DNA from: an uncultured Clostridia bacterium
Lineage (GTDB): Bacteria > Bacillota > Clostridia > Oscillospirales > CAG-272
Assembly (NCBI GenBank): GCA_947630015.1
Contig: CANRFY010000007.1
Location: forward strand, 2,526 to 66,525
Length of the DNA: 64,000 nucleotides
Direction: 5' to 3'
The notes beneath the pieces were generated by a model that saw nothing but the letters and a program-made list of their open reading frames with translations, was not told the DNA's origin and searched no databases. Of this stretch, positions 7,288 to 61,998 are shown in pieces. Both the position numbers and the translations under genes were made by a program. How positions within the stretch are numbered: position 1 is the first letter of the stretch; each line of letters starts with the position of its first letter.

Positions 7288-8030
7288 CGGAGCCTTTGCG
7301 AGCCACGCTATCCCTCAGTTATAACTTTTGCAAAGTTAAAAACCGTTAAGGGTCTCTTTGCCGGCCGGCAAAGAGACGCGAGAGCAAAGGTTGAGCCTTT
7401 GCAATCCTATCTTTTACTTTTCACAAACTTTTTCAAAGTTTTTAAATTTTGTTAAGGGCCTCTTTCTCGCAAGAAAGAGGCCCTTAACGATCCCGAAAGA
7501 GGCTCCCGTGTGGCGTCGACGTTATTCAATCGGCGGAAAGAGGGGTTTGGGGCGTAAAACCGCGATATTATTTCATCAAACGCATCCGTGCCTCCGCGCG
7601 GCGGGTCGAGAGCGATGTTATTCTGTCTTGGTCAATTGATTACTGACAGCGTCAGATTTCGCTCGTGTCGTGCGAACAAATGGGATTCACAACGAGATAC
7701 GAGACGGTTCGCACCGGTTGGCGCGCAGTGTCGTGCATCCGTGAGGGTTTATTTCAGGGCGAACGCGATATCGTCCCTGCTAACAGCTCCCACGCGGACT
7801 TATTCGACTGCGCCGCCGAAATTTCGCGATCGATCCGACGCTGGCAGCGACGGACATCGCACGCGCGTGGTGCGCGTAGGTGAGGCTGGAAAGCCTACGG
7901 CACAGGGGGTGATGTGCGGCGAGAGAGGGAGCGCACCGCGATGAGCTGTTCGCGCACACCTTCAGCGCGTTGTTCTTTTCTTGAGGAGTGTGGGGAAGAA
8001 CTTTTTCTTTAGTGCGAAGAAATCCTCCTC
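7288..8030 (+). repeat. Mosaic intergenic repeat copy R1 (alpha-long, beta, gamma1, delta); degenerate tail to about 8190
   Basis: Hairpin H1 7352-7377, hairpin H2 7451-7488, beta core 7489-7767, gamma1 7768-7932; aligns by eye with the six other loci. Confidence 0.9.
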
Positions 8031-8175
8031 CGCAACAACTCTATCCTCACAAAATAACTTTACAAAATCTCACCCCTGACTAAAACTATCCTCTAAAATT
8101 TGGCAACAATAACAAGGAGCCGTTCCCGTATCCATTACAAAAACTATCGTTGCGGCCTCCCCTCTATTGTCCCCC

Positions 8176-8204
8176 TTGACAAGCGGCTAATTATGTGCTA
8201 TCAT
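8176..8204 (+). promoter_or_regulatory. Candidate sigma-A promoter of rnj (TTGACA-N17-TGcTATCAT), giving a ~185-nt leader
   Basis: Exact -35 TTGACA 8176-8181, 17-nt spacer, extended -10 TGC-TATCAT 8196-8204. Confidence 0.45.
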
Positions 8205-10456: not shown

Positions 10457-10469
10457 TGCTGCCCCTGCG

Positions 10470-11180
10470 GCTGCGACAAAGATTTTCTTTGGCGATGCGC
10501 CACTTCTAATCTAAAACTTTTGCAAAGTTAAAAAAGCGTTAAGGGTCTCTTTGCTGGCCGGCAAAGAGACGCGCGCGCAAAGGATTCTCCTTTGCAATCC
10601 TATCCATTCCTTTTCACAAACTTTTTCAAAGTTTTTAAATTTTGTTAAGGGCCTCTTTCTCGCAAGAAAGAGGCCCTTAACGATCCCGAAAGAGGCTCCC
10701 GTGTGGCGTCAATTCGGCTCAAGTCGGCGGAAAGAATCGCTTGGGGCGTAAACCGCGATTTTATTTTAGCAAACAGTTTCGTGCCTCCGCGCGGCGGGTC
10801 GAGATCGATGCGATCCTGTCTTGGTTAATAGATCACTGATATCGTCAGATTCCGCTTGTGTCGTGCGAACAGCTCCGATTCACAATGAGATACGCGACGG
10901 TTCGCACCGGTTGGCGCGCAATATCGTGCATCCGTGAGGGGTTATGTCAGTGCGAACGCGGGGTTGATTTTGCAAAAATTGTTAGGGCTACGCCGCGAAC
11001 GGATCGAGATCAAAGCGTCAGCGTCGTGGTTAATCGGTTGCTGAGATGGCCAGATCAACCTTGCTTAGTGCGAACAAACGGAACGCACAAAGGGTAACGC
11101 CAGTGTCGCTTTGGCTGGCGTAGGTGGAACAAGGCAACCAGCGATTGCTTACTTTTTGCCACGCAAACGGTAACACGTTT
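10470..11180 (+). repeat. Mosaic repeat copy R2 (alpha-long, beta, gamma2)
   Basis: H2 10644-10681; beta to 10960; gamma2 shared with 27211-27440 and (inverted) 61400-61615. Confidence 0.9.
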
Positions 11181-11231
11181 TTTGTGGACACAGTTTTCCT
11201 CAATATAAATTTTTACAGCAACCGTGACTCA

Positions 11232-11870
11232 ACCCCTCTCGTCGCACCTCATTCCCTGTGCCGTAGGCTTCCCAGCCTCACCTGCGCGCACCGTGCGCGT
11301 GCGATGTCCGTCGCTGCCAGCGTCGGATCGATTGCGACGTTTTGGCGGCGCAGTCGAATAAGTCCGCGTGGGAGCTGTTAGCTGTTAGTGGGATCGCGTT
11401 CGCCCTGACATAAACCCTCACGGAAGCACAAAACTGCACGCCAACCGGTGCAAACCGTCGCGTATCTCATTGTGAATCCCATTTGTTCGCACGACACGAG
11501 CGGAATCTGACGATACCGGCCTCACCCCGTTTGCGACGCTGACGCCTCGATCTCGACCCGCCGCGCGGAGGTACAAAGCTGTTTACCAAAATAATATCGC
11601 GGTTTACGCCCTAAACAATTCTTTCCGCCGATTGAATAACATCGACGCCACACGGGAGCCTCTTTCGGGATCGTTAAGGGCCTCTTTCTTGCGAGAAAGA
11701 GGCCCTTAACATTATTTAAAAACTTTGTAAAGTTTGCAGAAAAGGAAACGATATGATTGCAAAGGAAGCTCCTTTGCGCGGACGCCTCTTTGCCGGCCAG
11801 CAAAGAGGCCCTTAACTCTTTTTTAAACTTTGCAAAAGTTATAGCTTTAGACTGGCGCGAATCGCCTGAA
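11232..11870 (-). repeat. Mosaic repeat copy R3 (alpha-long, beta, gamma1), convergent with R2
   Basis: Reverse complement of the R1-type sequence; H2 11673-11710, H1 11784-11816. Confidence 0.9.
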
Positions 11871-11889
11871 CCCCGCCCCACGTCCCCTT

Positions 11890-12532: not shown

Positions 12533-13861
12533 TTACGAAACGACCTCGCCGCGCAGATCGTAATCGAGCGTTTCGGTGATCTTCACGCGGATATGAGTCC
12601 CCGGCTCGGGGCGTTTTTTCTCGGGCAGAGTGAAATACACCATCCCGTCGACGTCGGGGGCGTCCCACTGTGTTCGGCCGTAGCACGAATCGGCGACGTA
12701 ATCGTAGCCCTCGTAGATGACGTCGAGGACTTTTCCGACGCGGCGCGCGTTTATCTTCGCCGAGATAGGCAGCTGCGCCGCCATGATCCTGTCGTAGCGA
12801 TCCTGTTTTACCTGCTCGTCGATCTGATCGGGGAAATCGTATGCGGGCGTTCCCTCCTCGCGGGAATATTTGAACGCACCGAATTTATCGAATTTCACCT
12901 CGTGGACGAACTCGAGCAGCTCGTCAAATTCGGCCTCGGTCTCGCCCGGGAAGCCGACGATCGCAGTCGTGCGGATCGCGATATTCGGTATTCCGCTGCG
13001 GAGCCTGTTGACCGCGTCGCGGACGCAGGCGGCGCCGCCGTGGCGGTTCATGCGGGAAAGCACGGTATCGGCGACGTGCTGGATCGGCAGGTCGATGTAT
13101 TTGACGACTCGCGGATTGTCGCGTATTTCGCGGATCAGCTCGTCGGTGATCTTATCGGGATAGCAGTACATGATGCGGAGCCACGGGATCGAGGTCTCCT
13201 CCGTTATCCTGTGCAAAAGCTCGGCGAGCTTGTATTCACCGTACAGATCGATCCCGTAACGCGTCGTGTCCTGTGCGACGAGGATGAGTTCGCCGACTCC
13301 GAGGGAGTCGAGCGATTTTGCCTCCTCGATAATATCCTCCATCGTGCGGGAGCGGTGGCGGCCGCGTATGTACGGTATCGCGCAGTAGGAGCAGCGATTG
13401 TCGCAACCCTCCGCGATCTTGAGATACGCGAACGCGTCCGTCGTTACGACGCGTTCGCCGCCGAGCGGCGCCGAATCGCGGTCGCCGTATGCGGCGAATT
13501 TGCCGCCGGCCTCGACGGCGCGAACCGCGTCCACGATCTCATGCACCGAACCGACGCCGAGAACGGCGTCGACCTCCGGCATCTCCTTCATGATCTCGTC
13601 GCGGTAACGCTCCGGCAGACATCCCGTCACTATTATGCCGCGCAGACCGCGGTTCTCCTTGAGCCACGCCACGTCGAGAATGCTGTCGATGGCCTCCCGC
13701 CGCGCTTCCTCTAAAAACGCGCACGTGTTCACGATCATGATGTCAGCCTCCGTGTCCTCCGGCGTGATCTCGTATCCCGCGTCGGTCAGAAGCTTTAACA
13801 TCACCTCTGTGTCCATCAAATTCTTCGCACATCCGAGAGATATGAAGCCAATTTTGGTCAT
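12533..13861 (-). CDS. rimO: Ribosomal protein S12 methylthiotransferase RimO
   Basis: 442 aa; KIGFISLGCAKN N-terminus, radical-SAM CDNRCSYC, C-terminal TRAM-like part. Confidence 0.88.
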   Translation of the reverse strand: MTKIGFISLGCAKNLMDTEVMLKLLTDAGYEITPEDTEADIMIVNTCAFLEEARREAIDSILDVAWLKENRGLRGIIVTGCLPERYRDEIMKEMPEVDAVLGVGSVHEIVDAVRAVEAGGKFAAYGDRDSAPLGGERVVTTDAFAYLKIAEGCDNRCSYCAIPYIRGRHRSRTMEDIIEEAKSLDSLGVGELILVAQDTTRYGIDLYGEYKLAELLHRITEETSIPWLRIMYCYPDKITDELIREIRDNPRVVKYIDLPIQHVADTVLSRMNRHGGAACVRDAVNRLRSGIPNIAIRTTAIVGFPGETEAEFDELLEFVHEVKFDKFGAFKYSREEGTPAYDFPDQIDEQVKQDRYDRIMAAQLPISAKINARRVGKVLDVIYEGYDYVADSCYGRTQWDAPDVDGMVYFTLPEKKRPEPGTHIRVKITETLDYDLRGEVVS

Positions 13862-13876
13862 TTTATTTTATTTTGA

Positions 13877-13935
13877 GAGGAACTTTTTGAAAAAAGTTCC
13901 CCTCAAACTCCCTTCAAAAACTTTTATTACAAGGG
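13877..13935 (-). repeat. Palindrome family P, copy P1 (immediately 5' of rimO ATG)
   Basis: GAGGAACTTTTTGAAAAAAGTTCCCCTC plus flank CCTTCAAAAACTTTTATTACAAGGG. Confidence 0.85.
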
Positions 13936-14337
13936 TTATTTTTAGATAAATCAAAAACATTTGCTGTCTTCAGGGATAGCTTAAGATAAACACGATTTGG
14001 TCCGCTTTTGGAAGGGAACATCTCCTCGCTTTGCTCGGAGCTGTCACACTTTTCGCGTAGCGGAAAGTGTCCTTTCTACAAAAAGGTTCCTCGCAAACAA
14101 AAAAGTTGCCTCAAGTAAAAGCTTTTTGCTGCTAATATATCAACTATAACAATTCAATCAAAAAATGTTTCTCTCTCGCAACCGTCCGCTCATTCCAATA
14201 TCGTTCTCATCCCTGCGCGCAGATGAAAACGATGCAAATCGTTTTCTCGACTTCGTCCGCGCTGTGAATCGACAGCTCCGCAAAGCCTGATCGCATATAT
14301 CCCCCGCATAACAATCGCCGTTTCCCTCACGCAAACG

Positions 14338-16681: not shown

Positions 16682-16753
16682 CATAAAAGTTTTTGAAAAA
16701 GAGGGGGGTCTGGGGGGAGAAAAAACTTTTTTCAAAAAGTTTTTCCTCCCCCC
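16682..16753 (+). repeat. Palindrome family P, copy P2 (terminator position after lipoprotein gene)
   Basis: flank CATAAAAGTTTTTGAAAAAGAGGGG plus GGGGGGAGAAAAAACTTTTTTCAAAAAGTTTTTCCTCCCCCC. Confidence 0.85.
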
Positions 16754-16768: not shown

Positions 16769-17395
16769 CTAATACGTAGGAGAGTCGAGGCGCCAGCCGG
16801 AGGGTTCGAGGCGGACGGTGACGGTGACGGTGACGGCGGGGTCGTTTTCGGCGGGGAGCGAGGTGATCTCGGCTCTGATCAAATTTTTCGTGGTAGAGAC
16901 AATGCGGACGGAGTCGAAGTCATAGCCGCGCGGCGGGAATATATCCACGTCGTCCGCGATCCGCATCGTGAGTCTGTCGCCGTTTTCGATATAGCGGGCG
17001 TAGACGGCCTTTTCGCCGCTGCTGTAGCCCGTCAGAAACGTCCGGAACAGATAGCCGGCGTAATCGCTCGTGAATACCTCAAGCGTACCCTCGCGCAGCG
17101 CCGCCTCCGTCAAATACGGCGCGTCGTCCGCAACATACGCGTATAGGATCGCGTCCTCGTCGTCGCGTACCGGCATCCCTTCGCCGAAATATATATCGTT
17201 CAGCGGCAAGGACGCCTCCACAAGCTCCCGCACGATCTCCACCGCCTCATCCTCCGGCACCCCGCCCCCGCAGGACGTCAGGAGGAGGAGGATGGTCAGG
17301 AGCAGGGGGAAGAGTGGGGGAAAAACTTTTTGAAAAAAGTTTTTCCCCCACACCCCCTTTTCAAAAACTTTTATTACATTATTTTTATTATTCAT
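16769..17395 (-). CDS. Putative lipoprotein, unknown function
   Basis: Lipobox LLLTSC after hydrophobic stretch; chosen ATG 17395 overlaps the gyrA stop; the N-terminal region is encoded by palindrome P3, so the start is uncertain. Confidence 0.5.
   Translation of the reverse strand: MNNKNNVIKVFEKGVWGKNFFQKVFPPLFPLLLTILLLLTSCGGGVPEDEAVEIVRELVEASLPLNDIYFGEGMPVRDDEDAILYAYVADDAPYLTEAALREGTLEVFTSDYAGYLFRTFLTGYSSGEKAVYARYIENGDRLTMRIADDVDIFPPRGYDFDSVRIVSTTKNLIRAEITSLPAENDPAVTVTVTVRLEPSGWRLDSPTY
17326..17380 (-). repeat. Palindrome family P, copy P3 (inside 5' end of lipoprotein ORF, just 3' of gyrA)
   Basis: GGGGGAAAAACTTTTTGAAAAAAGTTTTTCCCCC plus flank CCCCCTTTTCAAAAACTTTTATTACATT. Confidence 0.85.
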
Positions 17396-19961
17396 AATCG
17401 TTTGCGTCGTCGATGCCCGTTTCCTCGACAATGTCGGCAATGTCGACATCGTCGACATCGTCGACATCGTCCTCGGCGTCCTCCTGCTCGGTCAGCTCGA
17501 CCTTCGCGACCTCGGCGTCCTCATCGCGTTCGACTATGGCGAAATTCGCCACCTTCGATTCGCCCGTCCGCATCACGATCACTCCCGACGCCGCGCGGCG
17601 GTATGTGCTGATGTCGTCGGCGCGCGTGCGGATCATGACGCCCGCATCCGTGATGAGCATGATGTCCTCATCCTCGCCGACCGACGCGATCCCGATAAGA
17701 GCGCCCGTGCGCGGCGTGATGTTGTGACAGAATATGCCGCGTCCGCCGCGGTTCTTGACCTCGAACAGATCGAATTCAGTGCGCTTGCCGAATCCGTTCT
17801 CGGTCACGGTCAGAAGCGTCTTTCCGTCCTCGACGACAGTCGCGCCGACGACGCGCTCGCCCTCGCGCAGACGGATTCCGCGCACGCCGTGCGCGGTCCT
17901 GCCCTGACTGCGGACGCGGCTCTCGCTGAATCTGACGGCGCGTCCCGACGAGGACGCGATTATGATGTCGCGTTCGCCGTCCGTGCAGCCGACGTAGAGA
18001 AGCTCGTCGCCCTCGTCGAGCGTGATGGCGCGCTTGCCGCCCTTGCGCTGATATTCAAATTCGGAAAGCGGCGTGCGCTTTACGGTGCCGTTTCTCGTCA
18101 CCATCGTGAGATAGCCGCTCTTGTAGCCGTCGCCGTCGGCGTCGTTGACGGCGACGAACGCGGTCACGTTCTCATTCGGCTCGATCTCGATAATGTTGGC
18201 GAGATTCGTGCCGCGCGACGTGCGTCCCGATTCGGGTATCTGATACGCGCGGCGCGTGAACACCTTGCCCGTATCGGTGAACATCAACAAGTCGCTGTGG
18301 CTGTCCGCCGCGATCACGCGCTCGATGAAGTCCTCCTCCTTCGTCGACATGGCGATAATGCCCTTGCCGCCGCGCTTCTGCGCGGAGTAGACGTCGGCGC
18401 GCTGGCGCTTGATGTAGCCCGCGTGGGTGACTGTGATGAGGCAGTTGTGGCGCTCGATCAAATCCTCGGTCAGAATCTCATCCTCGACCGGCACGATCTC
18501 GGTGCGTCTGTCGTCCGCGTATTTGTCGCGGATCGCCGTCATCTCGGTCTTGATGAGCGCTTTGAGCTTGTTTTCGTCGGCGAGGATGCCCTCGATGTAG
18601 TCGATCTCCTCGTAAAGCTTCGCGAGTCTGTCCTCGACCTTCTGGCGCTCGAGGCCGGTCAGTCTGCCGAGCGTCATATCCACGATCGCCTGCGCCTGAA
18701 TGTCGTCGAGGCCGAATCTGTCGCAGAGTGAAATCTTCGCGTCCGCGATCGAGGATGCGGCGCGGATGAGCTTCACGATCTCGTCGATGTAATCGAGCGC
18801 GATCTTGTAGCCCTCGTAGATATGTGCCTCGCGCTTCGCGCGCGCAAGATCGAACCGCAGACGACGCGTTACGACGTCCTCCTGGTGCCTGATGTACTCG
18901 ACGAGGATATCCTTGAGCGTACACGTCTTCGGCTCGCCGCCGACGAGCGCGACCATATTGACCGCGCACGTGTCCTGGAGCTGCGTATAGCGGAAAAGCT
19001 GATTGAGAAGCACCTGCGGATTTACGTCGCGGCGGTAATCGATCACGATCTTCATGCCGTGGCGTCCGGATTCGTCGCGGAGTCCCGTCATGCCGTCGAC
19101 GCGCTTTTCTTCCTTGAGCGCCCATATCGACTTTACAAGCTCGCTCTTATTGACGCCGAACGGAATCTCCGTCGCGGTGATGCGGTGATGCTCCTCGTCG
19201 ATCTCGCACCGCGAGCGGACGGTGATATGCCCGCGTCCCGTCGCATACGCCTCGTAAATCCCCGACGTGCCGTATATGATCGCGCCCGTCGGGAAATCGG
19301 GACCCTTCACGTACTGCATCAGCTCGCCCGTCGTCGCGTCGGGATGATCCATCAGATAAAGCGTGCCGTCTATCGTCTCGGCTAAATTGTGCGTCGGGAT
19401 GTTAGTCGCCATTCCGACCGCGATCCCCATGCTGCCGTTGACGAGCAGATTCGGGAAACGGGACGGCAAAACGACAGGCTCGTTCATCGTGTTGTCGTAG
19501 TTCGGCCTGAAATCGACGACATCCTTGCCGATGTCGGCGATCATTTCCTCCGCCAATTTCGCGAGCTTCGTTTCGGTGTAACGCATCGCGGCGGGCGGGT
19601 CGCCGTCGACGGTGCCGTAGTTGGAATCGCAGAATACGAGCGGGTAACGATACGAGAACGGCTGCGCCATCCTCATCAGCGCGAAATATATCGACGCGTC
19701 GCCGTGCGGGTGATAGTTTCCCATGACGGCGCCGACGATCTTCGCCGACTTCGGTATCGGCCGGTCATAGGTGAATTTCTCCTCGAACATCGAATATAAA
19801 ATTCGCCTCTGCACCGGCTTCATGCCGTCCCTGACGTCCGGCAAAGCCCTGCTCGTTATAACGCTCATCGAGTACGCAATAAAGGACTTCTTGACCTCCT
19901 CATGCATCTCGACGTCAATTATCTTCTGATCCGGAAAATCTACTCTCTCTTGTTCTTTCAT
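17388..19961 (-). CDS. gyrA: DNA gyrase subunit A
   Basis: 857 aa; SRALPDVRDGMKPVQRRILY, AAMRYTE active-site region, beta-pinwheel CTD, acidic tail. Confidence 0.98.
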   Translation of the reverse strand: MKEQERVDFPDQKIIDVEMHEEVKKSFIAYSMSVITSRALPDVRDGMKPVQRRILYSMFEEKFTYDRPIPKSAKIVGAVMGNYHPHGDASIYFALMRMAQPFSYRYPLVFCDSNYGTVDGDPPAAMRYTETKLAKLAEEMIADIGKDVVDFRPNYDNTMNEPVVLPSRFPNLLVNGSMGIAVGMATNIPTHNLAETIDGTLYLMDHPDATTGELMQYVKGPDFPTGAIIYGTSGIYEAYATGRGHITVRSRCEIDEEHHRITATEIPFGVNKSELVKSIWALKEEKRVDGMTGLRDESGRHGMKIVIDYRRDVNPQVLLNQLFRYTQLQDTCAVNMVALVGGEPKTCTLKDILVEYIRHQEDVVTRRLRFDLARAKREAHIYEGYKIALDYIDEIVKLIRAASSIADAKISLCDRFGLDDIQAQAIVDMTLGRLTGLERQKVEDRLAKLYEEIDYIEGILADENKLKALIKTEMTAIRDKYADDRRTEIVPVEDEILTEDLIERHNCLITVTHAGYIKRQRADVYSAQKRGGKGIIAMSTKEEDFIERVIAADSHSDLLMFTDTGKVFTRRAYQIPESGRTSRGTNLANIIEIEPNENVTAFVAVNDADGDGYKSGYLTMVTRNGTVKRTPLSEFEYQRKGGKRAITLDEGDELLYVGCTDGERDIIIASSSGRAVRFSESRVRSQGRTAHGVRGIRLREGERVVGATVVEDGKTLLTVTENGFGKRTEFDLFEVKNRGGRGIFCHNITPRTGALIGIASVGEDEDIMLITDAGVMIRTRADDISTYRRAASGVIVMRTGESKVANFAIVERDEDAEVAKVELTEQEDAEDDVDDVDDVDIADIVEETGIDDANDYE

Positions 19962-19969
19962 GTTATTTT

Positions 19970-20029
19970 CTGGGGAAACTTTTTGTAAAAAGTTTCCCCA
20001 GACCCCTTCAAAAACTTTCCTTACAAATT
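19970..20029 (-). repeat. Palindrome family P, copy P4 (immediately 5' of gyrA ATG)
   Basis: CTGGGGAAACTTTTTGTAAAAAGTTTCCCCAG plus flank ACCCCTTCAAAAACTTTCCTTACAAATT. Confidence 0.85.
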
Positions 20030-20064
20030 ATTTTATTTTGCTTTATTCAAATCGTTTCAAAAAC

Positions 20065-24744: not shown

Positions 24745-25248
24745 TTCGTTGTCTGCCTTTCTTATTAAATCATAATTTCAAAGTCGAACGTGATCAGCAT
24801 TTTTTCGGTATGTGGAAAAAAAGATAAAATCTCCGCTCGCGAATACATATATATAAATATATTTTAGAATAGTAGAAGTAGAAGAAGTAGGGGATGTGGA
24901 AATGTGGGAAAACGTGAAAAATATCGGTATTGTCGGGTGTATCGGGGTTTTTTATGCGGTCTTTGGCTGTTTTTTTTCGGTGGCTTTTTTGTGGAAAACG
25001 GACGGGAAAATTGGGCGCGATTGTGTATAAATTCCTGTGATCTTTGCGGATGAGGCCGTTTTTTTCGTTTTCAACAGCGGTCGGGAGCCGCTTTTCAAAC
25101 GATTTAAACGGCTGCCGGTTTGGCGCGCAGTCTGTAAAATCGGAGTCGGGACGGGGGAGAGTCCGTGTTTACATGGCGCGTTTTCCACAGGGTTTTCCAC
25201 AGCTTGTTGAAAATATGCGTTTGCCGAATAGAATTTTTACATACGCCG
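24745..25248. promoter_or_regulatory. oriC-like dnaA-dnaN spacer with DnaA-box cluster
   Basis: TGTGGAAAA 24811, TGTGGAAAT 24895, TGTGGGAAA 24903, TGTGGAAAA 24990, TGTGTATAA 25022, TTTTCCACA 25181 and 25193 (TTWTNCACA-type boxes). Confidence 0.7.
24844..24912. promoter_or_regulatory. Candidate unwinding module: AT-rich tract, DnaA-trio run, GC cluster, two DnaA boxes
   Basis: TACATATATATAAATATATTTTAGAA then TAG TAG AAG TAG AAG AAG TAG (24870-24890), GGG, TGTGGAAAT-GTGGGAAA. Confidence 0.55.
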
Positions 25249-26613
25249 TTATATGTCGATCGAGTTGATGAGTTCGTTCATTTCGACGGCGAACGACGGA
25301 TTCGACTGAATCTCGCGCTCGATGAGGTTCGACGAGTATAGGATCGTGGAATGATCGCGGCCGAATACGTTTCCGATCGCTGGCAGCGACATATCGGTCC
25401 GCTTGCGCAGTATATAGATCGCGACGTGGCGCGCCCACACAAGCTCGCGGGTCCGTTTTTTGCCCTTCAGATCGGCCTCCTCAAAGCCGTATTTCGCCGA
25501 TACCTCGCGCAGCACCTTTGCGATCTTGACCGAAAGCGGAATTTCCTCCGATACGATGTCGGTAAGACTGCCGGCGGCAGTCTCGACCGTGATCTCCTTC
25601 TCGGTCAAAAGCGAGATCGCCTTGAGCCGTTTTAATGCTCCCTCGATCTGGCGGACGTTGCTCTTGAGCTTTTCGGCGAGATATGCGATCACGTCGGGTT
25701 CGAGGGTGATCCCGAGCGATTCGGATTTGTTTTTGATGATGGCGGCGCGCAGCTCGAGATCGGGAGGCTGCACGTCGGCAAGAAGTCCCCATTCAAACCG
25801 CGTCTTTAATCTGTCCTCGAGGACCTTGATCTCCTTCGGCGGTCGGTCGGAGGTCAAAATGATCTGCTTGTGGTTTTCATAAAGCGCGTTGAAGGTGTGG
25901 AAGAATTCCTCCTGCGTCGATTCCTTTCCGCCTATGAACTGGACGTCGTCGATGATGAGAACGTCCGTCGTTCTGTAATGCTCGCGGAAGGAGGCGGTGC
26001 TTTTTGTCGAGATCGCCTCGATTAACTCGTTTGTGAACTGTTCGCCCTTGACGTAGATGAGACTGATATAGGGATTGCGGCGCAGAAGCTCGTTCGTCAC
26101 CGCGTACATGAGATGCGTTTTACCGAGTCCGCTCGGCCCGTAAATGAAAAGGGGGTTATAGGCCTCGCCGGGGTTATTTGCGACGGCGGTACACGCGGCG
26201 TGCGCGAACTTATTCGAGCCGCCGACGATGAAATTGTCGAACGTGTATTCGTTGTGATATCCGAAGTCGTCGGTGCGGACGGCGACGTCGGAATCCAACT
26301 CCTCCAGCTCGCCGATGTAGGATTTGGACGTCTCCGCAGCCGCCTCGACGGGAAGCTCAAGGGTGAGGGTGACGTCGACGCTGCAGCCTAAAACGGCGGA
26401 CAGCGCGTCCGCGATCGTATCCTTATGGCGGTTCGATATTATGTTGTATTTCAGCTCGTTATTGCAGCTGACGACGGCGGTATGGGACGCGTCGTCGACG
26501 GAGACGAGCTTTAAAACTGGGATCCAGAGATCGTATGAGGCGGACGAGAACCGCTTGCCAAGCTCCTCTTTTGTAAGCTCCCAGATGTTGTTTATATCAC
26601 TCTGCTTCATCAT
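25249..26613 (-). CDS. dnaA: Chromosomal replication initiator DnaA
   Basis: AAA+ Walker A GPSGLGKTHL; C-terminal DnaA-box binding region (VWARHVAIYILR, DHSTILYS); track ORF extends to 26661 but MMKQSD at 26613 is the likely start. Confidence 0.95.
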   Translation of the reverse strand: MMKQSDINNIWELTKEELGKRFSSASYDLWIPVLKLVSVDDASHTAVVSCNNELKYNIISNRHKDTIADALSAVLGCSVDVTLTLELPVEAAAETSKSYIGELEELDSDVAVRTDDFGYHNEYTFDNFIVGGSNKFAHAACTAVANNPGEAYNPLFIYGPSGLGKTHLMYAVTNELLRRNPYISLIYVKGEQFTNELIEAISTKSTASFREHYRTTDVLIIDDVQFIGGKESTQEEFFHTFNALYENHKQIILTSDRPPKEIKVLEDRLKTRFEWGLLADVQPPDLELRAAIIKNKSESLGITLEPDVIAYLAEKLKSNVRQIEGALKRLKAISLLTEKEITVETAAGSLTDIVSEEIPLSVKIAKVLREVSAKYGFEEADLKGKKRTRELVWARHVAIYILRKRTDMSLPAIGNVFGRDHSTILYSSNLIEREIQSNPSFAVEMNELINSIDI

Positions 26614-26699
26614 TTTCGGGCTTTTTTCACATAACATTATATTATATATATTATACCACAAAATCGATAAAATTTCAAGAGCGTATTTAGGGATTGAGG

Positions 26700-27440
26700 A
26701 TTAAAACCTTTGTAAAGGTTTAAATGAAACTTTCTCTTTTGCGATTCTCGCTGTTCCTTATCGAAAACCTTTGAAAAGGTTAAAAATAGTTAAGGGTCTC
26801 TTTGCTGGCCGGCAAAGAGACGCGTGCGCAAAGGATTTTCCTTTGCGATCCTATCGTTTCCTTTTCTGCAAACTTTACAAAGTTTTTAAATTTTGTTAAG
26901 GGCCTCTTTCTCGCAAGAAAGAGGCCCTTAACGATCCCGAAAGAGGCTCCCGTGTGGCGTCGACGTTATTCAATCGGCGGAAAGAATTGTTTCGGGCGTA
27001 AACCGCGATATTATTTTGACAAACAGTTTCGTGCTTCCGCGCGGCGGGTCGAGAGCGAGTTTATTCTGTCTTGGTAAATCGATTCCTGACAGCGTAAGAT
27101 TCCGCTCGTGTCGTGCGAACAGCTCCGATTCACAAAGAGATACAAGACGGCTCGCACCGGTTGGCGCGCAATATCGTGCATCCGTGAGTGTTTATGTCAG
27201 TGCGATCGCGGGGTCACGTTGATAAAAACGTTAGGGCTGCATCGCGAACGGGTCGATATTAAAGCGTCAGCGTCGCAAACGGAATGTGGCTTGTATAGCC
27301 GGATTATCCTCGCGTGGTGCGAACAGCTCTGACGCACAAAGGGAAACGCCAATTTTGCTGGGTAGGCGTAGATGGAACAGGGCAACCAGCGATTGATTGC
27401 TTTTCGCCAAGCAAGTGGACAACAAACAATTACAAATTTC
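26700..27440 (+). repeat. Mosaic repeat copy R4 (alpha-long, beta, gamma2)
   Basis: H1 26789-26822, H2 26895-26932, beta to 27210. Confidence 0.9.
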
Positions 27441-27960
27441 TTGCCAAGAAAACGGGCGTTGTGTTTCTTTTCTTGAGGGTGTTTGAGGGAGGTTCTTTTC
27501 TTTCCCAAAGAAAAGAATCTCACCTCAAAATTAACGGTTCTTTTCTTTTTCAAAGAAAAGAAGCTCACCTCGTAAAAAAGTGGCGCTGGAATTTATATGC
27601 CTTATGGATTTTAGCGCGTCAATGAAAGCAAACGTCCCGCGAAGAGCTGTTCGCACACAGCGAACGCGCGTTGTTCTTTTGGAGAGGGGGTTCGGGGGAG
27701 GACCCTTTCTTTTGAAGAAAGGGTCCTCATCCACAACTGAATCTTTGCAAGAAATGGTCTTCATCCCACACCGGCTCTTTACAAGAAAAGGTCCTCATCC
27801 CAGACCGCATTATTGTGCGAAAAGTCCTCATTCCGATGCGATTTTTAACGAAACTCCTCATCCTGAAACTGTCTTTTAACGAAGAAATCCTCATCCCGAA
27901 TCGGCTTTTATGCGTAAAGAGAACCGCTGATATAATTTCAAATTTTTATAAGAGTTTAGA
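27441..27960 (+). repeat. Mosaic interior: small hairpins (TTCTTTTCTTT-N-AAAGAAAAGAA), delta module and periodic tail
   Basis: delta CCGCGAAGAGCTGTTCGCAC...GAGGACCCTTTCTTTTGAAGAAAGGGTCCTC at 27636-27735, also at 31750-31850 and 53541-53633. Confidence 0.8.
27715..27930 (+). repeat. Six-unit tandem array, period 30-34 nt, core TCCTCATCC
   Basis: Cores at 27724, 27758, 27792, 27825, 27855, 27888; each unit ends CTTT.CAA/TTTAAC + GAAA. Confidence 0.8.
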
Positions 27961-28075
27961 CAATGCATGGCGAGTATTGCAATGGAAAATTCTTTACTCA
28001 CGCGCCTCTTTGCCGGCCAGCAAAGAGACCCTTAACTCTTTTTTAACTTTGCAAAAGTTATAGCTGAGATATGGC
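27960..28075 (-). repeat. Solo inverted alpha fragment (H1 plus outer palindrome)
   Basis: H1 28004-28036, AACTTTGCAAAAGTT 28045-28059. Confidence 0.85.
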
Positions 28076-28095
28076 GAGAATCGCGAAGGAATCCC

Positions 28096-31050: not shown

Positions 31051-31074
31051 GATTTTCCTTTTGAAAAAGGGGGA

Positions 31075-31945
31075 AAAGGGATGGGGAAGGTTTCTCCTTG
31101 GCGATTCTATCCATTACTCATCTAAAACTTTTACAAAGTTAAGAAAGAGTTAAGGGTCTCTTTGCTGGCCGGCAAAGAGACCCTTAACAATCCGAGAAAA
31201 CGGCGTGCCGGTGGCGTCGATTCCGCTCCAGTCGGCGGCAGGGGCGTTTCGGGCGTAGACCGCGATATTATTTCGTCAAGCGCGTCCGTTCCTCCGCGCG
31301 GCGCGTCGAGATCGAGGCGTCAGCGTCGCAAACGGAATGAGACTGGTATCGTTAGATTTCGCTCGTTTCGTGCGAACAAATGGGATTCACAACGAGATAC
31401 GAGACGGTTCGCACCGGTTGGCGCGCAATATCGTGCATCTGTGAGGGTTTATGTCAGTGCGAACGCGATATCGCCAACAGCTAACAGCTCCCACGCGGAC
31501 TGATTTGACTGCGCCGAATGAAATGTCGCGACCGATCCGACGCTGGCAGCGACGGGCATCGCACGCGCGTTGTGCGCGTAGGTGAGGCTGTAAAGCCTAC
31601 GGCACGGTGGGTGAGGTGCGGCGAGAGAGGGAGTGATTTGTGGTAGGTGTAAAAACTTATGCCAAAGAAAATTGCGCCCACCGAAGTGAGCGCATTGTTT
31701 TTAGATATCTGATTTGTTTGCGCGTTGATGGCACTTGCGCGATAAAAACAAACGCTCCGCGAAGAGCTGTTCGCACCCAGCAAACGCGCGTTGTTCTTTT
31801 GGAGAGGGGGTATGGGGGAGGACCTTTTCTTTTAAGAAAGGGTCCTCATCCCTAACCGCATCTTTGCAAGAAAAGATTCACATTTCAGACAATCAATTTT
31901 CGCAAAAAGCACTTATCTATGGCTGTCTTCAAAAATTCAAGTAAC
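31075..31945 (+). repeat. Mosaic repeat copy R5 (alpha-short, beta, gamma1, J, delta, tail)
   Basis: Single 40-nt perfect hairpin 31149-31188; beta to 31467; gamma1 to 31632. Confidence 0.9.
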
Positions 31946-36798: not shown

Positions 36799-36814
36799 CG
36801 TTTAACGTGAAACA
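36799..36814. promoter_or_regulatory. parS-like site 1
   Basis: CGTTTAACGTGAAACA vs TGTTNCACGTGAAACA. Confidence 0.55.
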
Positions 36815-36826
36815 TTGGCGCGCGAA

Positions 36827-36842
36827 TGTTTAACGTGAAACA
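36827..36842. promoter_or_regulatory. parS-like site 2
   Basis: TGTTTAACGTGAAACA, one mismatch to the palindromic parS consensus. Confidence 0.65.
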
Positions 36843-37659: not shown

Positions 37660-37849
37660 GGTTTTTGTCCTTTCGCTTTGTCTGTACGGTCATCATACAC
37701 CGCCGCGCGGGGAAAATCGTGGCGAGTCCGCAGCGTGAGAAATAATTTGTTTTGGCCTGCGGTGCGGATAAAGCGAGTCTTTTTGGGGAAAAGGGGGAGT
37801 TGCGCTCCCCTTGCCCCACGGTTGTAACTTTTGTAAAAGTTGGGAAAAG

Positions 37850-38690
37850 AGATTCCTTGGCGATTCACGATGCTGTTTATATAAAAGTTTTGCAAAAGTT
37901 AAGAAAAGTGTTAAGGGTCTCTTTGCTGGCCGGCAAAGAGACGCACGCGCAAAGGATGAACCTTTGCAATCCTATCTTTTACTTTTCACAAACTTTTTCA
38001 AAGTTTTTAAATTATGTTAAGGGCCTCTTTCTCGCAAGAAAGAGGCCCTTAACGATCCCGAAAGAGGCTCCCGTGTGGCGTCAATTCGGCTCCAGTCTGC
38101 GGAAAGAAGGGGTTGGGGCGTAAACCGCGATTTAAATTTAGTAAGCGCGATCGTGCCTCCGCGCGTCGGGTCGAGAGCGAGGCGATTCTGTCTTGGTTAA
38201 TCGTTTACTGACATCGTCAGATTTCGCTCGTGTCGTGCGAACAGCTCCGATTCACAAAGAGATACGAGACGGCTCGCACCGGTTGGCACGCAGTTTTGTG
38301 CATCCGTGAGTGTTTATGTCAGGGCAAACGCGATTTTATTTTTTGCTAACAGCTCCCACGCGGACTTATTTGACTGCGCCGCCTGAAATGGCGCAGTAAA
38401 TCTGACGCTGGCAGCGTCGGACATCGCACGAGTTCGGTGCGCGCAGGTGAGGCTGGGAAGCCTACGGCACAGGGGTGAGGTGCGTCGATAGAGGGGAAGA
38501 TTGGCAAATTTTGTATAAACTCATTTTAAAGAAAACTGCGTCGAACAAAGTGAGCGCATTGTTTTTCGTGGATATCAAAGTTGTTCGCGCGTTGATGGCA
38601 CTCAGGCGAAAGAATAACCATACCGCGAAGAACTATTCGCACTCAGCGTCAGCGCGGTATTCTTTTATTTCCTTTTCCGCCATACAAATC
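37850..38690 (+). repeat. Mosaic repeat copy R6 (alpha-long, beta, gamma1, J, delta-like)
   Basis: H1 37910-37942, H2 38016-38053, beta to 38332, gamma1 to 38495. Confidence 0.9.
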
Positions 38691-40417: not shown

Positions 40418-42052
40418 TCAGAATCTGAGTCTGAACGCCACAGAACCCATCGAAATCTCGTCGCCGCTGCGCAGACGGTTCGGCGCGTAAATGCGCATAC
40501 CGCCAAGCCTCGTCCCGTCCGGCGTGCCGAAATCCTCGATGTAGACGATCTGATCCTTTACGAATATGCGCGCGTGTACGGGCGCAACGTCGGGATTCTT
40601 CCATACGATGTCGCACTTCGGCTTGCTTCCGATCGTGAGTTCTTCGTCAAGATAAAGCGTCCTCGGTCCCGCATAGCTGCCCGCGATCACGTCGAGCTTC
40701 ATATAGATGCCCTTGCCCGCGGCAGCCGCGCCTCCGGCGCGCTTTTTATTCTTTTTGCCAGCTCTCGCAACCGCGATCACGGCGATTATGAGCAGCACGG
40801 CAACGACGCCGACGATCACCCATATAAGCACTTTATCGCCGAAGAACTTCGAGAAAAAGCTCTCCGATCCGCCCGTCTCGGCGTCGGTCTCCGCCTCCGC
40901 CGTGAAGCCGTCGGTGCCGGCGTCTGTACCGGCGTCTGTGCCGATCTCGGTCTCGCGTCCGCCGTCAGTGTCCGGCGCATCCGTCGCGGGTTCGTCGGTC
41001 GCGGGTTCATCCGTCGCCGCAGGTTCCTCGGTGCTGTCGGGTTCCTCGGTGTCGACCGTATCGATCGGATCAGCCGTATCGGCTGTATCGGAGCCCTCCG
41101 ATTCCGTATCGATCGGACGCGATGTGATCAGCATCGGAACGCCGCTCAAAACAGACGTTTTGAGCGTCACATCGCCGCCGTCCCCGTCCTTGCCCGCGAA
41201 TTCGAGCTGCACCGACTTCGTGCCTGTCAACTCGCCCGCGCCCTTGAAGCAGGCTGCGTAAAGTCCGTTCACGTACTGCGCAAGATCATGGCCTGCCTTG
41301 GCCGCCGTCATCTCAGCATTGATGAACATCCTCATGCCGTTCACGTCGTCGAGCGCCTTGAACGCGTCGCCGCCCCATTCAGCGCCAACGCAGAGCGTAT
41401 GCGCGATCACGTCGGGATGCGATGCGATCGCATCCTCGAGCGCGCTTTTCGCGCTTTTATCTATCGTCGGCACGCGGCCGTCCGAGATTATGACGAGATT
41501 GACGGCCTCGCCGTCCCTCTCGACGCCTCGCAGATACTCGTATGCCTCGACGATGCCGCCGAATACGCCCACGGCGGATTCCTCATATTTGACATTCTTT
41601 ACCGCGTTCGAGACAGCCTTTTTCCCGACGAGGCCCTCGGCCTCGATCTTTAGTCCGTTCGCGCACGTCGCGACGGCAAAGACCGCGTCCTCGGAGTCTT
41701 TCGCCAGCTCCTCCGCGAACGTCTCGGCGCTGCGCTTCACGCCCGCCATTGTCGCCGACGTATCGATAAGGATCAGATACGCCGCCGGCGTATCGCTTTC
41801 CCCGACCGTCGTAAGAGGCGACGACGCGCCCGATTTGCCGGATATTATCGACGCGCTCTCGAACGTAACGCCGCCGACAGCGCTCGCATCCGCGAATGTG
41901 TAGATGTCGGCGCCCTCGCCGTATGCGGAAACTAATTTGACGCCCGCGTTGATTCCGTCGGCGGTTATGCCGTCGCCGGCGGCGAACGCCGGCATCGCGA
42001 TGCAGATCGCGAGCATTATCGACACGACGATAAACGCTGTTTTTTTGTTCAT
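40418..42052 (-). CDS. Signal peptide - vWA-like ectodomain - TM - cytoplasmic FHA domain protein
   Basis: MNKKTAFIVVSIMLAICIAMPAFA signal; LILIDTSATM MIDAS-like; acidic T/D/E-rich linker; TM VLIWVIVGVVAVLLIIAVIAV; C-terminal FHA (LTIGSKPKCDIVW...VHARIF...IEDFGTPDGTRLGG). Confidence 0.8.
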   Translation of the reverse strand: MNKKTAFIVVSIMLAICIAMPAFAAGDGITADGINAGVKLVSAYGEGADIYTFADASAVGGVTFESASIISGKSGASSPLTTVGESDTPAAYLILIDTSATMAGVKRSAETFAEELAKDSEDAVFAVATCANGLKIEAEGLVGKKAVSNAVKNVKYEESAVGVFGGIVEAYEYLRGVERDGEAVNLVIISDGRVPTIDKSAKSALEDAIASHPDVIAHTLCVGAEWGGDAFKALDDVNGMRMFINAEMTAAKAGHDLAQYVNGLYAACFKGAGELTGTKSVQLEFAGKDGDGGDVTLKTSVLSGVPMLITSRPIDTESEGSDTADTADPIDTVDTEEPDSTEEPAATDEPATDEPATDAPDTDGGRETEIGTDAGTDAGTDGFTAEAETDAETGGSESFFSKFFGDKVLIWVIVGVVAVLLIIAVIAVARAGKKNKKRAGGAAAAGKGIYMKLDVIAGSYAGPRTLYLDEELTIGSKPKCDIVWKNPDVAPVHARIFVKDQIVYIEDFGTPDGTRLGGMRIYAPNRLRSGDEISMGSVAFRLRF

Positions 42053-42074
42053 TGATCCGTCCTCCCACAGTCCG

Positions 42075-42809
42075 TCATCTGACGATGACGGTCATTAGCG
42101 AAAGATTGTCGTTTCCGCGTCCGATGCGCGAGATCACGCGGAGCAGCAGATGCTCCGCCCAGTCGCGCGCGTCGATCGATTTCAACAGATCGAGCGGCAC
42201 TTCGTCGTCGAACAGGTATTCCCAAACGCCGTCGGAGCAGAGCAGAAACGCGTCGCCGGACATAAGCGGCTCCGGCGAGCCGCCGATATCGGGCTGATTG
42301 CGGTCAGCGCCGCCGAGCGTGCGCAGAAGATACGACTGATCCTCGTCCTGTCCGATCTGATGGCGCGTTATCTCGCCCGCCTGATACTTCTTGTACGCGA
42401 CGGAATGATCGTCCGTGACGCTCAGTATAGCGCCGTCGCGCAGATAGTAGAGGCGCGAATCGCCCACGTTGGCCCATGTCGCGCGATCGCCGTCAACGGC
42501 GAGGACGACGACGGTGCTTTTCATCGTGGCGCGGCGCTCCGTCTGGAGCTTCATGACCTCGGTATTCGCAAGCGCGATCTTATCGCGCAGCCATTCCGCG
42601 CGGTCGCCGCATTCAGTCTCGCGTTCCCATTCGGACGCAAGCGTTTCCGCGACGCAGGACGACGCAACCTCTCCGAGCTGATGGCCGCCGAGTCCGTCGG
42701 CGACGACGAATATACCGGAGCCGTCGCGGAGCCTGCACGCGACCGAATCCTCATTCTGCTCTCTGTCGCCGGCGTTTGTGTAGTAAAATACGTCTAATAT
42801 CATAGGCAT
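42075..42809 (-). CDS. PP2C-family Ser/Thr phosphatase (1)
   Basis: 244 aa; REQNEDS, VADGLGGH, CSDGV motifs. Confidence 0.9.
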   Translation of the reverse strand: MPMILDVFYYTNAGDREQNEDSVACRLRDGSGIFVVADGLGGHQLGEVASSCVAETLASEWERETECGDRAEWLRDKIALANTEVMKLQTERRATMKSTVVVLAVDGDRATWANVGDSRLYYLRDGAILSVTDDHSVAYKKYQAGEITRHQIGQDEDQSYLLRTLGGADRNQPDIGGSPEPLMSGDAFLLCSDGVWEYLFDDEVPLDLLKSIDARDWAEHLLLRVISRIGRGNDNLSLMTVIVR

Positions 42810-44203
42810 TACGAAAGCTCGACACGCATCATGTTGGCGCGGTCGCCGAGATAGAAGCTGTCGCCGGATTTAAGTCTGTACGCCATGCCCGCCACGAGCT
42901 TTGTGCCGTTCACGAGATACGTTCCGTATGTGGAGCGCAGATCGGTAAGCACGAATTCGCCCGTCGCGCGGTCATAGCTTACGGAGCAGTGACGCGTGCT
43001 GACGCCCGGGGTGCCGTCGCGGAACACGATCTGGCACGTCGCCTTGTCGCGTCCGATCAAAAGCTGCGCGCCCGTGATCGCGACTCTCATGCCGCCGTGC
43101 TGTTCGGACAGCGAACGCACCGACGGCGTCTGTGCCGGCGACGGCACACCCGCGCCGACGGCTGCGGGACCTGCTGCCGGCGTCTGAGCCGGCGTCTGGC
43201 CCTTCTTTATAAGCAGCACTACGACAACGCCTATAACGACGACGACAAGAACGCCGATGAGGACGATCGCGGCCGTGCTGATATTGAATGTGCTGGTTGT
43301 GGGTTTGACATCGATCTTCAGATCTTCAAGAATGTCCAAAACATACTCAATTTCTATCGAATACTGAGTCTTGGAGTCGCCCGACGACGAATCGGGACTC
43401 ATTGTCCAAGTATTGACGCCGACGACTCTGCCTTTTTCGTCTATAAGCGGTCCGCCCGAGTTGCCGTGGTTGATCGTCGCCGTATGCTGGATAACTCTGA
43501 CGTCGGTATCGTCGGCCGCTACCGTCGTATGAAGCGACACGATACCGCTTGTGACCGTTACCTTTTCAACGCTTGCCGCATACTCCTTGCCGGAGAAATT
43601 GCCGAGCGTCGCATCGTCTGTCGTTCCTGGGAATCCGAGCGCGTATACGGTGTCGCCCGATTCGATCTCCTCGTCCTCGGGGAGAAGCGGGAGTGCGACT
43701 CTGCCCTCCATCGGCTCCGCCGCTCTCAGAACGGCGAGGTCGGCCTCGTCCTCATCCGCCTCGTAAAGCACGCGGCACGGGATCGCGCGGCTCTTGTCAA
43801 GCTCGCCGTTGGAATCCATTGCGAAATCGTCCTTGAGCAGATAGATGCTCGTTACGCGTCCTTGGAACACGTAGTATTCGCCGTTGATCTCCTGCAATGA
43901 CGCGGTGTCTCTTTCAATTACGTGTCTGTTCGTAACGAACACGTCTGTCTCGCCGCCCGTATTGCCGACGCCGAACGCGGTGCCTGTCGACGTCATGTAG
44001 CCCGTGCCGTAATACGACAGATCGTCCGAGGCCACATCATATTTATAAACATCGCAATCGTCATAAATAGCCAAAACTCTCGCAACGCCGTTTCTCGATT
44101 CAGCCGCGATATTGTTGCCGCTCTTCCCCGTCGACGCGCATCCGGATAAAGCCAGCGCGAGTATCATCGCGATAAGTATCGCGCATACTGTTCTTTTTTT
44201 CAT
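42809..44203 (-). CDS. Lipoprotein signal - trypsin-like (S1C) protease ectodomain - TM - FHA domain protein
   Basis: LALSGCAS lipobox; TNRHV and GNSGGPLIDEKGRVVGVNT protease motifs; TM AAIVLIGVLVVVVIGVVVVLLI; C-terminal FHA (LLIGRDKATCQIVF...STRHCSV...DLRSTYGTYLNG-like). Confidence 0.82.
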   Translation of the reverse strand: MKKRTVCAILIAMILALALSGCASTGKSGNNIAAESRNGVARVLAIYDDCDVYKYDVASDDLSYYGTGYMTSTGTAFGVGNTGGETDVFVTNRHVIERDTASLQEINGEYYVFQGRVTSIYLLKDDFAMDSNGELDKSRAIPCRVLYEADEDEADLAVLRAAEPMEGRVALPLLPEDEEIESGDTVYALGFPGTTDDATLGNFSGKEYAASVEKVTVTSGIVSLHTTVAADDTDVRVIQHTATINHGNSGGPLIDEKGRVVGVNTWTMSPDSSSGDSKTQYSIEIEYVLDILEDLKIDVKPTTSTFNISTAAIVLIGVLVVVVIGVVVVLLIKKGQTPAQTPAAGPAAVGAGVPSPAQTPSVRSLSEQHGGMRVAITGAQLLIGRDKATCQIVFRDGTPGVSTRHCSVSYDRATGEFVLTDLRSTYGTYLVNGTKLVAGMAYRLKSGDSFYLGDRANMMRVELS

Positions 44204-44238
44204 TTTCTTTTTCCTGCTTTCCGTTAATTTAAAGTGGA

Positions 44239-45057: not shown

Positions 45058-45063
45058 ATCGTT

Positions 45064-45711: not shown

Positions 45712-45760
45712 GATGTTCCTCCTGAATTGTGTTTTATATATTTTTTCAGAGATAGCGTTA

Positions 45761-48576: not shown

Positions 48577-48612
48577 ACGACATCCCTCAAGCTGTATGAT
48601 TTGCGATCGACA

Positions 48613-50991: not shown

Positions 50992-51033
50992 TTCTGTCCC
51001 TCGGATATGATTTTTCGTATATGTGTCAAGGCG

Positions 51034-61975: not shown

Positions 61976-61998
61976 AGAGAAAGTTACCCCTCAATTGC

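Follow-up and report, generated by a model that had tools for sequence, protein, structure and literature searches.

A large, modular repeat family without open reading frames in the replication-origin region of an uncultured Clostridia bacterium

Results

One repeat family fills seven intergenic loci

The 64,000-nt stretch of contig CANRFY010000007.1 analysed here (the window) spans the region around the replication origin of an uncultured Clostridia/Eubacteriales bacterium, and seven of its intergenic loci (A to G) are filled with copies of one modular, hairpin-rich repeat family that holds no conserved open reading frame (ORF). We consider the chances about even (probability of roughly 0.5) that this family is a selfish, non-autonomous, lineage-specific dispersed repeat, broadly of the kind of BOX elements, BIME/REPIN sequences and miniature inverted-repeat transposable elements (MITEs) and about 5–10 times larger and more complex than these.

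The initial annotation of the window had described the seven loci as sharing long, similar stretches in both orientations. Dozens of pairwise self-BLASTN alignments were obtained among the loci, and in self-BLASTN and MAFFT comparisons 350–1,170 nt could be aligned in either orientation with 74–88 % identity and E-values down to 0; a failure to align beyond 200 nt, which had been named as grounds for dismissing the family, did not occur. The estimate that about one ninth of the window is occupied was likewise correct, as the seven intergenic loci total 7,223 nt or 11.3 %. The multiple alignment resolved eight full units with the modules alpha, beta and a gamma tail, plus two partial units. Their core is 70–90 % identical among copies, i.e. 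copies differ by 10–30 %. Every module and signature string that had been listed was located, far above chance level: the palindrome AACTTTNNNAAAGTT occurred 13 times against 0.06 expected, always within the loci, GTGCGAAC 20 times against 4 expected (a fivefold enrichment in both orientations, with 19 of the 20 occurrences within the loci) and a 29-nt beta pattern 8 times against 0 expected. Independent ENA and Logan contigs ran from unique flanks into the repeats with 99.9–100 % identity, and the repeats are therefore not an assembly artefact.

Two size classes were observed. The composites B, C and G, at 1.31–1.40 kb, have alpha modules in inverted orientation at their two ends (77–85 % over 160–470 nt), and the single units A, D and E measure 0.87–0.89 kb. 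All copies occupy intergenic DNA only and stop exactly at adjoining promoters and terminators. Locus A stops at the −35 element of the rnj promoter (8176), locus B begins directly after the terminator of a Dabb-domain gene downstream of rnj, the start of locus C lies about 20 nt from the dnaA promoter and locus E ends short of the 12/12 thiF promoter. The promoter of rnj, encoding RNase J, spans 8176-8204 and consists of TTGACA, a 17-nt spacer and a TG-extended −10 element.

Module architecture of the units

Module alpha is composed of one to three tandem subunits of about 62 nt (about 103 nt with an inserted hairpin), each containing a 15–16-bp palindrome AACTTTTGCAAAGTT. There are two or three such palindromes per module, spaced 58–64 nt or about 103 nt apart and confined to the loci. 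The innermost subunit terminates in a perfect 17-bp hairpin, the tip of which is of three kinds, CTCTTTCT-CGCA-AGAAAGAG, CTCTTTGC-TGGCCG-GCAAAGAG and CTCTTTTC-GCGG-GAAAAGAG, each fully compensated. Only D, G_L and G_R possess the whole of the perfect GGGTC hairpin (H1) that had been ascribed to alpha, whereas A, B_L, C and E lack part of its right arm; the description thus holds for part of the units only.

Module beta forms a conserved, non-palindromic core of about 280 nt, in which GTGCGAAC/GTTCGCAC occurs three times and a 40-nt cassette takes either of two unrelated forms. It is followed by the tail gamma1 in A, B_R, D, E and G_L, and in B_L, C and G_R by gamma2, a diverged duplicate of part of beta. 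Thus B and G represent one composite type, in which a gamma2 unit faces a gamma1 unit. Module delta, present in A, C, D, E and F, comprises a GC stem, then TTGTTCTTTT and then the hairpin GAGGACCCTTTCTT…AAGAAAGGGTCCTC; additional zeta hairpins were seen in C and F. After delta, loci A, C and D continue into a degenerate array of half-hairpins of about 34 nt with the motif TCCTCATCC, which in locus C (27711-27807) was scored by Tandem Repeats Finder as 2.9 copies of period 34 with 81 % matches and in which only about 12 nt are conserved. Type III toxin-antitoxin loci and CRISPR arrays were considered for this array and rejected, given a conserved part shorter than the regular repeats of at least 23 nt expected of such arrays and the lack of an adjoining toxin or cas ORF. 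A role of the GGAUGAGGA/UCCUCAUCC array as a CsrA sponge or anti-Shine-Dalgarno sequence, conceivable from its motif, is kept only as an idea.

Recombination among copies and gene order in related strains

Copies of the family exchange segments by homologous recombination or gene conversion. The mosaic structure noted at first sight could be quantified, with all four gametes present at 2,144 of 2,926 informative site pairs (73 %) and a Hudson-Kaplan Rm of at least 32 over 339 columns, and the nearest neighbour of a given unit shifts segment by segment.

The repeats are also the points at which closely related strains differ in gene order, as seen at loci B and G. A strain contig that is 99 % identical to the window (L002) diverges from it at 10456; after the terminator of the Dabb-domain gene, array and delta follow in reverse complement, in the place that alpha of B_L occupies in the window. 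In a second one, 98 % identical (L087), the unit beside gidB resembles G_R through alpha and early beta and then continues with a gamma1-type cassette, motif and tail. When positions 1874-4800 of L087 were compared with 57957-62000 of the window, gidB was followed by a single repeat unit and then by proA/proB-like genes, where the window has a glycoside hydrolase; the far end of the same contig again enters alpha and delta. Short-read contigs of this organism mostly end inside repeats or at repeat borders.

Distribution among genomes

The family is lineage-restricted and practically confined to this organism. Two highly conserved DNA patterns gave zero exact matches in GTDB species representatives, JGI metagenomes and IMG/VR, and no copy was detected with an nhmmer profile of the units in the dnaA neighbourhoods of 80 relatives (1.38 Mb). 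When chance-open reading frames of the units were used as bait against 5.8 billion protein clusters, only four spurious 'proteins' were returned, taken as four further copies: three on the short ENA contigs L085, L095 and L096, where new, distinct copies have other flanks or arrangements, and one (P0004) on a 33.7-kb NCBI contig.

Two congeners (L097 and L098, the latter from GCA_947631245.1) encode an RNase J with 88–89 % identity, and their rnj-Dabb DNA is 77 % identical to that of the window. In the 34 kb around rnj they contain no copy of the family and no dispersed repeats. The rnj promoter is kept in the window and in both congeners, everything upstream of it differs, and synteny breaks exactly where locus A meets the rnj −35 element.

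Coding potential and comparison with annotated families

The absence of a conserved ORF was borne out by the alignment, in which substitutions showed no 3-nt periodicity and no long ORF was kept across units. Small ORFs at conserved positions change their amino acids freely, without coding-like conservation, and none of them resembles a small hydrophobic toxin peptide; type I toxin-antitoxin repeats (LDR, Hok/Sok-like) were rejected as an identity for this reason. By direct reading, no Shine-Dalgarno-like sequence was present upstream of the best-conserved candidate, a small ORF of 28 amino acids, and the longest translations of the units gave no Pfam or PHROG family at E≤0.1.

As had been stated for the surroundings of the copies, no transposase, reverse transcriptase or integrase was detected among the sizeable ORFs scanned over the whole window; these are housekeeping or signalling genes, except for two ORFs without a Pfam match. 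No tRNA- or tmRNA-like parts were detected in the units, and the proposed Rfam check yielded zero matches at gathering thresholds, with ROOL, GOLLD, OLE, HEARO, raiA, group II intron and ribozyme models included. At E≤1 the only matches within the loci scored 27 bits against a cutoff of 535 bits (Rev41) and reflect the hairpin alone. No similarity was found by blastn to 72,556 plasmid and 50,697 phage records, and accession numbers and keywords led to nothing on the family in the literature.

Several other identities were tried and rejected. PATE derived from IS200/IS605 do not fit, because forward units lie on the plus strand both to the left (A, B_L) and to the right (C, D, E, G_L) of the cluster of DnaA boxes at 24811-25201. 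An oriC role of locus C was dismissed, since DnaA boxes cluster in the dnaA-dnaN spacer instead. The alpha palindromes were not identified as parS or Noc-binding sites (NBS): canonical parS (TGTTNCACGTGAAACA) occurs at 36799-36842 only, AACTTTTGCAAAGTT differs from it in register and no NBS-like site was found.

Transcription signals and conserved stems

In A, B_L and E the promoter scan placed TTCACA-17-TAAATT immediately before the 17-bp hairpin H2, on its 5' side, and direct reading of L085 (with an 18-nt spacer), L095 and L096 showed TTCACA/TAAATT there as well. Weaker versions are present in B_R, C and F, and D, G_L and G_R have none. The complete H1 hairpins of D, G_L and G_R are outward-pointing, canonical terminator-like sites of the unit's reverse strand, and delta contains a terminator-like site facing forward; the units thus appear bracketed by outward-facing terminators. 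The hairpin after gamma1 in locus D (31694-31673) has T-rich sequence on both sides and makes the better terminator when transcribed in reverse, where its loop is UUCG and its stem includes a G·U pair. In 8 of 10 cases the gene immediately preceding alpha is on the same strand (one-sided binomial p about 0.055), and all units are G>C skewed on the forward strand. With hairpin terminators facing outward on either side and a sigma-70-like promoter immediately before the 17-bp hairpin in most of them, the units would be self-contained in transcription; a structured transcript of about 0.5 kb probably results.

Consensus folds were computed on seven units from the alpha hairpin to gamma1. The forward fold had a favourable covariation term of −2.09 and 10 compensated pairs, compared with +1.16 and 6 compensated pairs, 3 of them in the shared hairpin, for the reverse fold. 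Double-change cells numbered 18 against 8.8 in shuffled alignments, a value reached by 0 of 500 shuffles, and the covariation score was also above the shuffles. Helix 13, which encloses gamma1, contains five compensated pairs; in unit E, C-to-U changes in this helix keep G·U pairs on the forward strand only and leave A·C mismatches on the other strand. The loop variants of a gamma1 hairpin, GGAA, GUAA and GGGA, are all GNRA on the forward strand. Variation avoided the predicted pairs equally on both strands, G·U and A·C counts were 126/19 against 106/26, and the fold z-scores were modest on both strands. Altogether, the conservation of hairpins and stems is real, and there is a slight lean towards the conserved stems acting on the forward strand, in RNA or in single-stranded DNA.

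Coordinates and genomic context

The coordinates of units, loci and modules are compiled in Table 1. The minus-strand dnaA gene (25249-26661) is followed by dnaN-like and recF-like ORFs, named from position and size, and then by gyrB and gyrA; a noc-like parB, soj, spo0J, gidB and gidA are also encoded in the window, as are two helix-turn-helix proteins of the XRE family. Among 185,579 species-representative genomes the closest DnaA matches were 47–60 % identical and came from metagenome-assembled genomes (MAGs) of animal-gut origin. The spacer between dnaA and dnaN contains a cluster of five DnaA-box-like sites at 24811-25201 (four TTTTCCACA, one TTATACACA); this is likely oriC and is separate from repeat locus C, which lies upstream of dnaA. 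Two near-consensus parS sites (TGTTTAACGTGAAACA) at 36799-36842 are placed at the start of the soj/parA ORF and just upstream of it, in the gap to the noc-like parB.

The region 40418-53310 is a dense signalling cluster with four FHA-domain proteins, two PP2C phosphatases and three paralogous Ser/Thr kinases (47122-48576, 48613-50991 and 51034-53310). The kinase domains are 74–76 % identical in DNA and the C-terminal domains are unlike (RCC1 repeats, Laminin_G_3); in-frame tandem repeats occur within the cluster at 47379-47503 and 49528-49736. A separate intergenic repeat of about 80 nt is present at 13861-13942, 16683-16749, 17324-17405 and 19956-20034. Its core is the hairpin GGAAAAACTTTTT-GA-AAAAAGTTTTTCC, followed by TTCAAAAACTTTTAT, its palindrome is similar to the alpha palindrome of the large family, and short-read contigs stop at these sites too (L004).

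Table 1. Repeat units, loci and modules (positions in the window, unless another contig is named; strand as '.' for the loci with two facing units)
Feature	Position	Strand	Parts and remarks
Full unit A	7290-7930	+	
Full unit B_L	10477-11166	+	
Full unit B_R	11871-11233	-	
Full unit C	26700-27414	+	
Full unit D	31087-31633	+	
Full unit E	37820-38495	+	
Full unit G_L	60690-61329	+	
Full unit G_R	62000-61401	-	
Partial unit, alpha only	28093-27934	-	
Partial unit, alpha only	53895-53644	-	
Locus A	7288-8175	+	single unit
Locus A, alpha	7288-7488		palindromes 7323-7337, 7426-7440; truncated H1 7345-7377; promoter-like site 7420-7448; perfect H2 7451-7488
Locus A, other parts			beta 7489-7767; gamma1 7768-7930; delta-like part 7932-8010; degenerate array 8011-8170
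Locus B	10457-11871	.	two facing units, alpha outward
Locus B, B_L		+	alpha 10477-10681; beta 10682-10960; gamma2 10961-11166
Locus B, centre	11167-11232		
Locus B, B_R		-	gamma1 11233-11394; beta 11395-11672; alpha 11673-11871
Locus C	26700-28093	+	adjoins dnaA promoter
Locus C, unit			alpha 26700-26932 (H2 26895-26932); beta 26933-27210; gamma2 27211-27414
Locus C, zeta hairpins	27489-27521, 27538-27570		
Locus C, delta	27622-27728		forward terminator-like site 27657-27674; hairpin 27698-27728
Locus C, array of about 34 nt	27711 to about 27900		
Locus C, inverted partial alpha	27934-28093		
Locus D	31060-31945	+	single unit
Locus D, alpha	31087-31188		complete H1 31149-31188, terminator-like on minus strand
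Locus D, other parts			beta 31189-31467; gamma1 31468-31633; delta 31750-31835; array-like tail to about 31945
Locus D, hairpin	31673-31694		T-rich on both sides
Locus E	37820-38690	+	single unit between noc-like parB and thiF
Locus E, alpha	37820-38053		promoter-like site 37985-38013; H2 38016-38053
Locus E, other parts			beta 38054-38332; gamma1 38333-38495; delta-like part 38620-38666
Locus F	53420-53895	-	partial element without beta
Locus F, parts			zeta hairpin about 53443-53475; delta 53531-53637; inverted dual alpha 53644-53895
Locus G	60690-62000	.	same composite as B in opposite orientation
Locus G, G_L		+	alpha 60690-60885 (H1 60846-60885); beta 60886-61165; gamma1 61166-61329
Locus G, G_R		-	gamma2 61401-61603; beta 61604-61883; alpha 61884-62000 (H1 61884-61923)
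Repeat units of contig L012	925-2072, 4812-5503, 8809-9324, 13249-13715, 16195-16740, 19355-20026		positions on L012

Discussion

Many diverged copies, placement between genes, absence from congeners, recombination, strain rearrangements, inverted terminal modules and the lack of coding capacity are together best accommodated by selfish, non-autonomous DNA. Such units may first have spread through a trans-acting enzyme encoded elsewhere that would recognise the palindromes or hairpins of alpha, or through duplication driven by recombination. A number of observations weigh against this reading. Homologous recombination alone can explain every strain difference seen, and mobility itself is something that we infer. 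A recent burst did not take place: copies have diverged by 10–30 %. No transposase or recombinase was found on any fetched contig either. The outermost homologous base varies among copies, alpha has between one and three subunits, and A, D and E carry alpha at one end only. At the junctions of A, B, C, D, E and G, read by eye, no consistent direct repeat indicating a target-site duplication was apparent, a test that is weakened by the fuzzy boundaries. Finally, beta retains long stretches without variation, loops vary where their stems do not, and some changes are compensatory, all of which suggests constraint beyond what a junk element would need.

The main competing account, which we regard as serious but unlikely, is that the units are multi-copy genes for a structured non-coding RNA (ncRNA) of about 0.5 kb with a cellular function and that dispersal of the copies is secondary. 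Made from the forward strand, the RNA would begin at the alpha promoter, with the perfect 17-bp hairpin shielding its 5' end, and extend across beta and gamma1 to the hairpins with GC stem and U-tract. The covariation and compensated pairs of the forward fold, the excess of double-change cells, helix 13 with the G·U pairs retained in unit E and the GNRA variants of gamma1 all agree with such a transcript, as do the forward G>C skew, the alpha modules abutting the 3' ends of same-strand genes and the promoter-like sites. However, the structural signals derive from 7–11 sequences that are related by descent, pair avoidance is alike and the G·U/A·C tallies nearly equal on both strands with modest z-scores, the best terminator-like sites (H1 and the UUCG hairpin) are on the reverse strand, and D, G_L and G_R have no promoter-like site. 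Absence from congeners would also be unusual for a housekeeping RNA, and there was no match in Rfam. A related but rather improbable idea draws on omega RNAs, bridge RNAs and ORF-less group II introns, the dependence of which on a protein partner offers a model for a guide or ribozyme-like RNA: by analogy, the units could specify an RNA of a novel structured class, about 0.5 kb long, which would drive its own dispersal together with an enzyme supplied from outside the units; the family would then be an RNA-centred mobile element that itself codes for no protein.

The regularity of alpha might alternatively point to DNA as the functional molecule. Palindromes phased at about 62 nt, or six helical turns, and the GTGCGAAC octamers could be sites for a dimeric protein, such as a ParB/Noc-like or helix-turn-helix protein that organises or marks the origin-proximal chromosome. 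The two to three regularly spaced palindromes per alpha, found in the loci only, the enrichment of GTGCGAAC in both orientations, the origin region itself with noc-like, soj and spo0J genes beside locus E and the similar palindrome in the 80-nt repeats elsewhere fit this proposal, yet the canonical parS sites stand apart, the palindrome is unlike parS or NBS, the DnaA boxes of the dnaA-dnaN spacer lie outside the repeats and at least some copies occur elsewhere in the genome with other flanks. As nothing ties any protein to the palindrome sites and the 280-nt non-palindromic core would be left unexplained, we consider a protein-binding platform distinctly improbable. Least probable of all, and largely refuted, is a decayed protein-coding mobile element, a prophage or a type I toxin-antitoxin repeat: one forward frame through beta is open in 7 of 8 units and is occasionally called by gene callers, but there is no 3-nt periodicity, the residues of the small ORFs change freely and none is toxin-like, and neither a Pfam/PHROG match (E≤0.1) nor a match to phage or plasmid DNA was obtained.

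The systems closest to this family include several bacterial intergenic repeats. BOX elements of Streptococcus pneumoniae have the structure boxA-boxB(n)-boxC and a length of about 100–300 nt. By description, our family shares with them the lack of ORFs, a strictly intergenic and modular, hairpin-forming build, a variable number of internal modules, many copies per genome, possible co-transcription with neighbours and the lack of an own cognate transposase; the likeness is a functional analogy only. Unlike BOX, the units measure 0.6 kb and the loci 0.9–1.4 kb, with a 280-nt core, alternative tails and promoter-like and terminator-like sites of their own; the host lineage is another one, and membership by sequence is implausible from the unit size.

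REPs (repetitive extragenic palindromes) are imperfect palindromes of 20–40 nt that are mobilised by RAYT transposases. REP/BIME/REPIN sequences are, again by description, comparable in forming mosaic palindromic units in both orientations between genes, with hairpins at gene 3' ends and as substrates of recombination. Here, in contrast, palindromes and hairpins make up just the outer part of a much larger unit of 0.6 kb, and no Y1 or RAYT transposase gene was seen in the window. Fixed terminal inverted repeats, target-site duplications and a length usually below 300–400 bp characterise MITEs. Those of the Neisseria Correia and Bacillus cereus bcr type correspond by description in being non-autonomous, dispersed, lineage-restricted and intergenic with transcription signals, and the composites B, C and G have inverted terminal modules, although A, D and E carry alpha at one end only; the family differs from them by its variable ends, the absence of recognisable duplications and its far greater length.

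Large ncRNAs such as ROOL, GOLLD, OLE, HEARO/omega RNA and raiA are similar in size (0.3–0.8 kb), hairpin-rich and found in Clostridia or gut bacteria, and HEARO is multi-copy too, through riding on a mobile element. In contrast to the family described here, which matched no covariance model and is confined to one lineage, those RNAs span many taxa, and unlike HEARO/omega RNA no IscB or TnpB gene adjoins the units.

An analogue was observed in contig L012 (JAZNHT010000027.1), the dnaA region of a related Eubacteriales MAG with 45 % identical DnaA. This contig has its own repeat family of ORF-poor units of 0.4–0.7 kb in nearly every intergenic gap around dnaA, dnaN, gyrB and gyrA, with ends resembling terminal inverted repeats (a GCAGGAGG…CCTCCTGC hairpin plus ACCACCGCC) and a 15-bp closing stem. 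Both families have hairpins with compensated changes and no Rfam match, whereas no sequence similarity between them is detectable and clear inverted ends distinguish the L012 units. Large structured intergenic repeats may thus be recurrent in this clade.

If the density in the origin region holds genome-wide, about a tenth of the chromosome would consist of one ORF-less repeat family, with units of 0.6–1.4 kb, far beyond the usual size of bacterial non-coding repeats. The repeats shape the genome as recombination substrates and as sites of gene-order change between strains with 98–99 % identity, and they abut key promoters, those of dnaA, rnj and thiF. Since short-read contigs end in or at the repeats, lineages of this kind are expected to be systematically fragmented and under-represented among MAGs. 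The second, unrelated family in a related MAG suggests that the clade tolerates or exploits large structured repeats; should the units act as RNA-centred mobile elements, the L012 family would be a second, independent example. The clade is therefore a promising place for new mobilisation mechanisms or new large RNAs.

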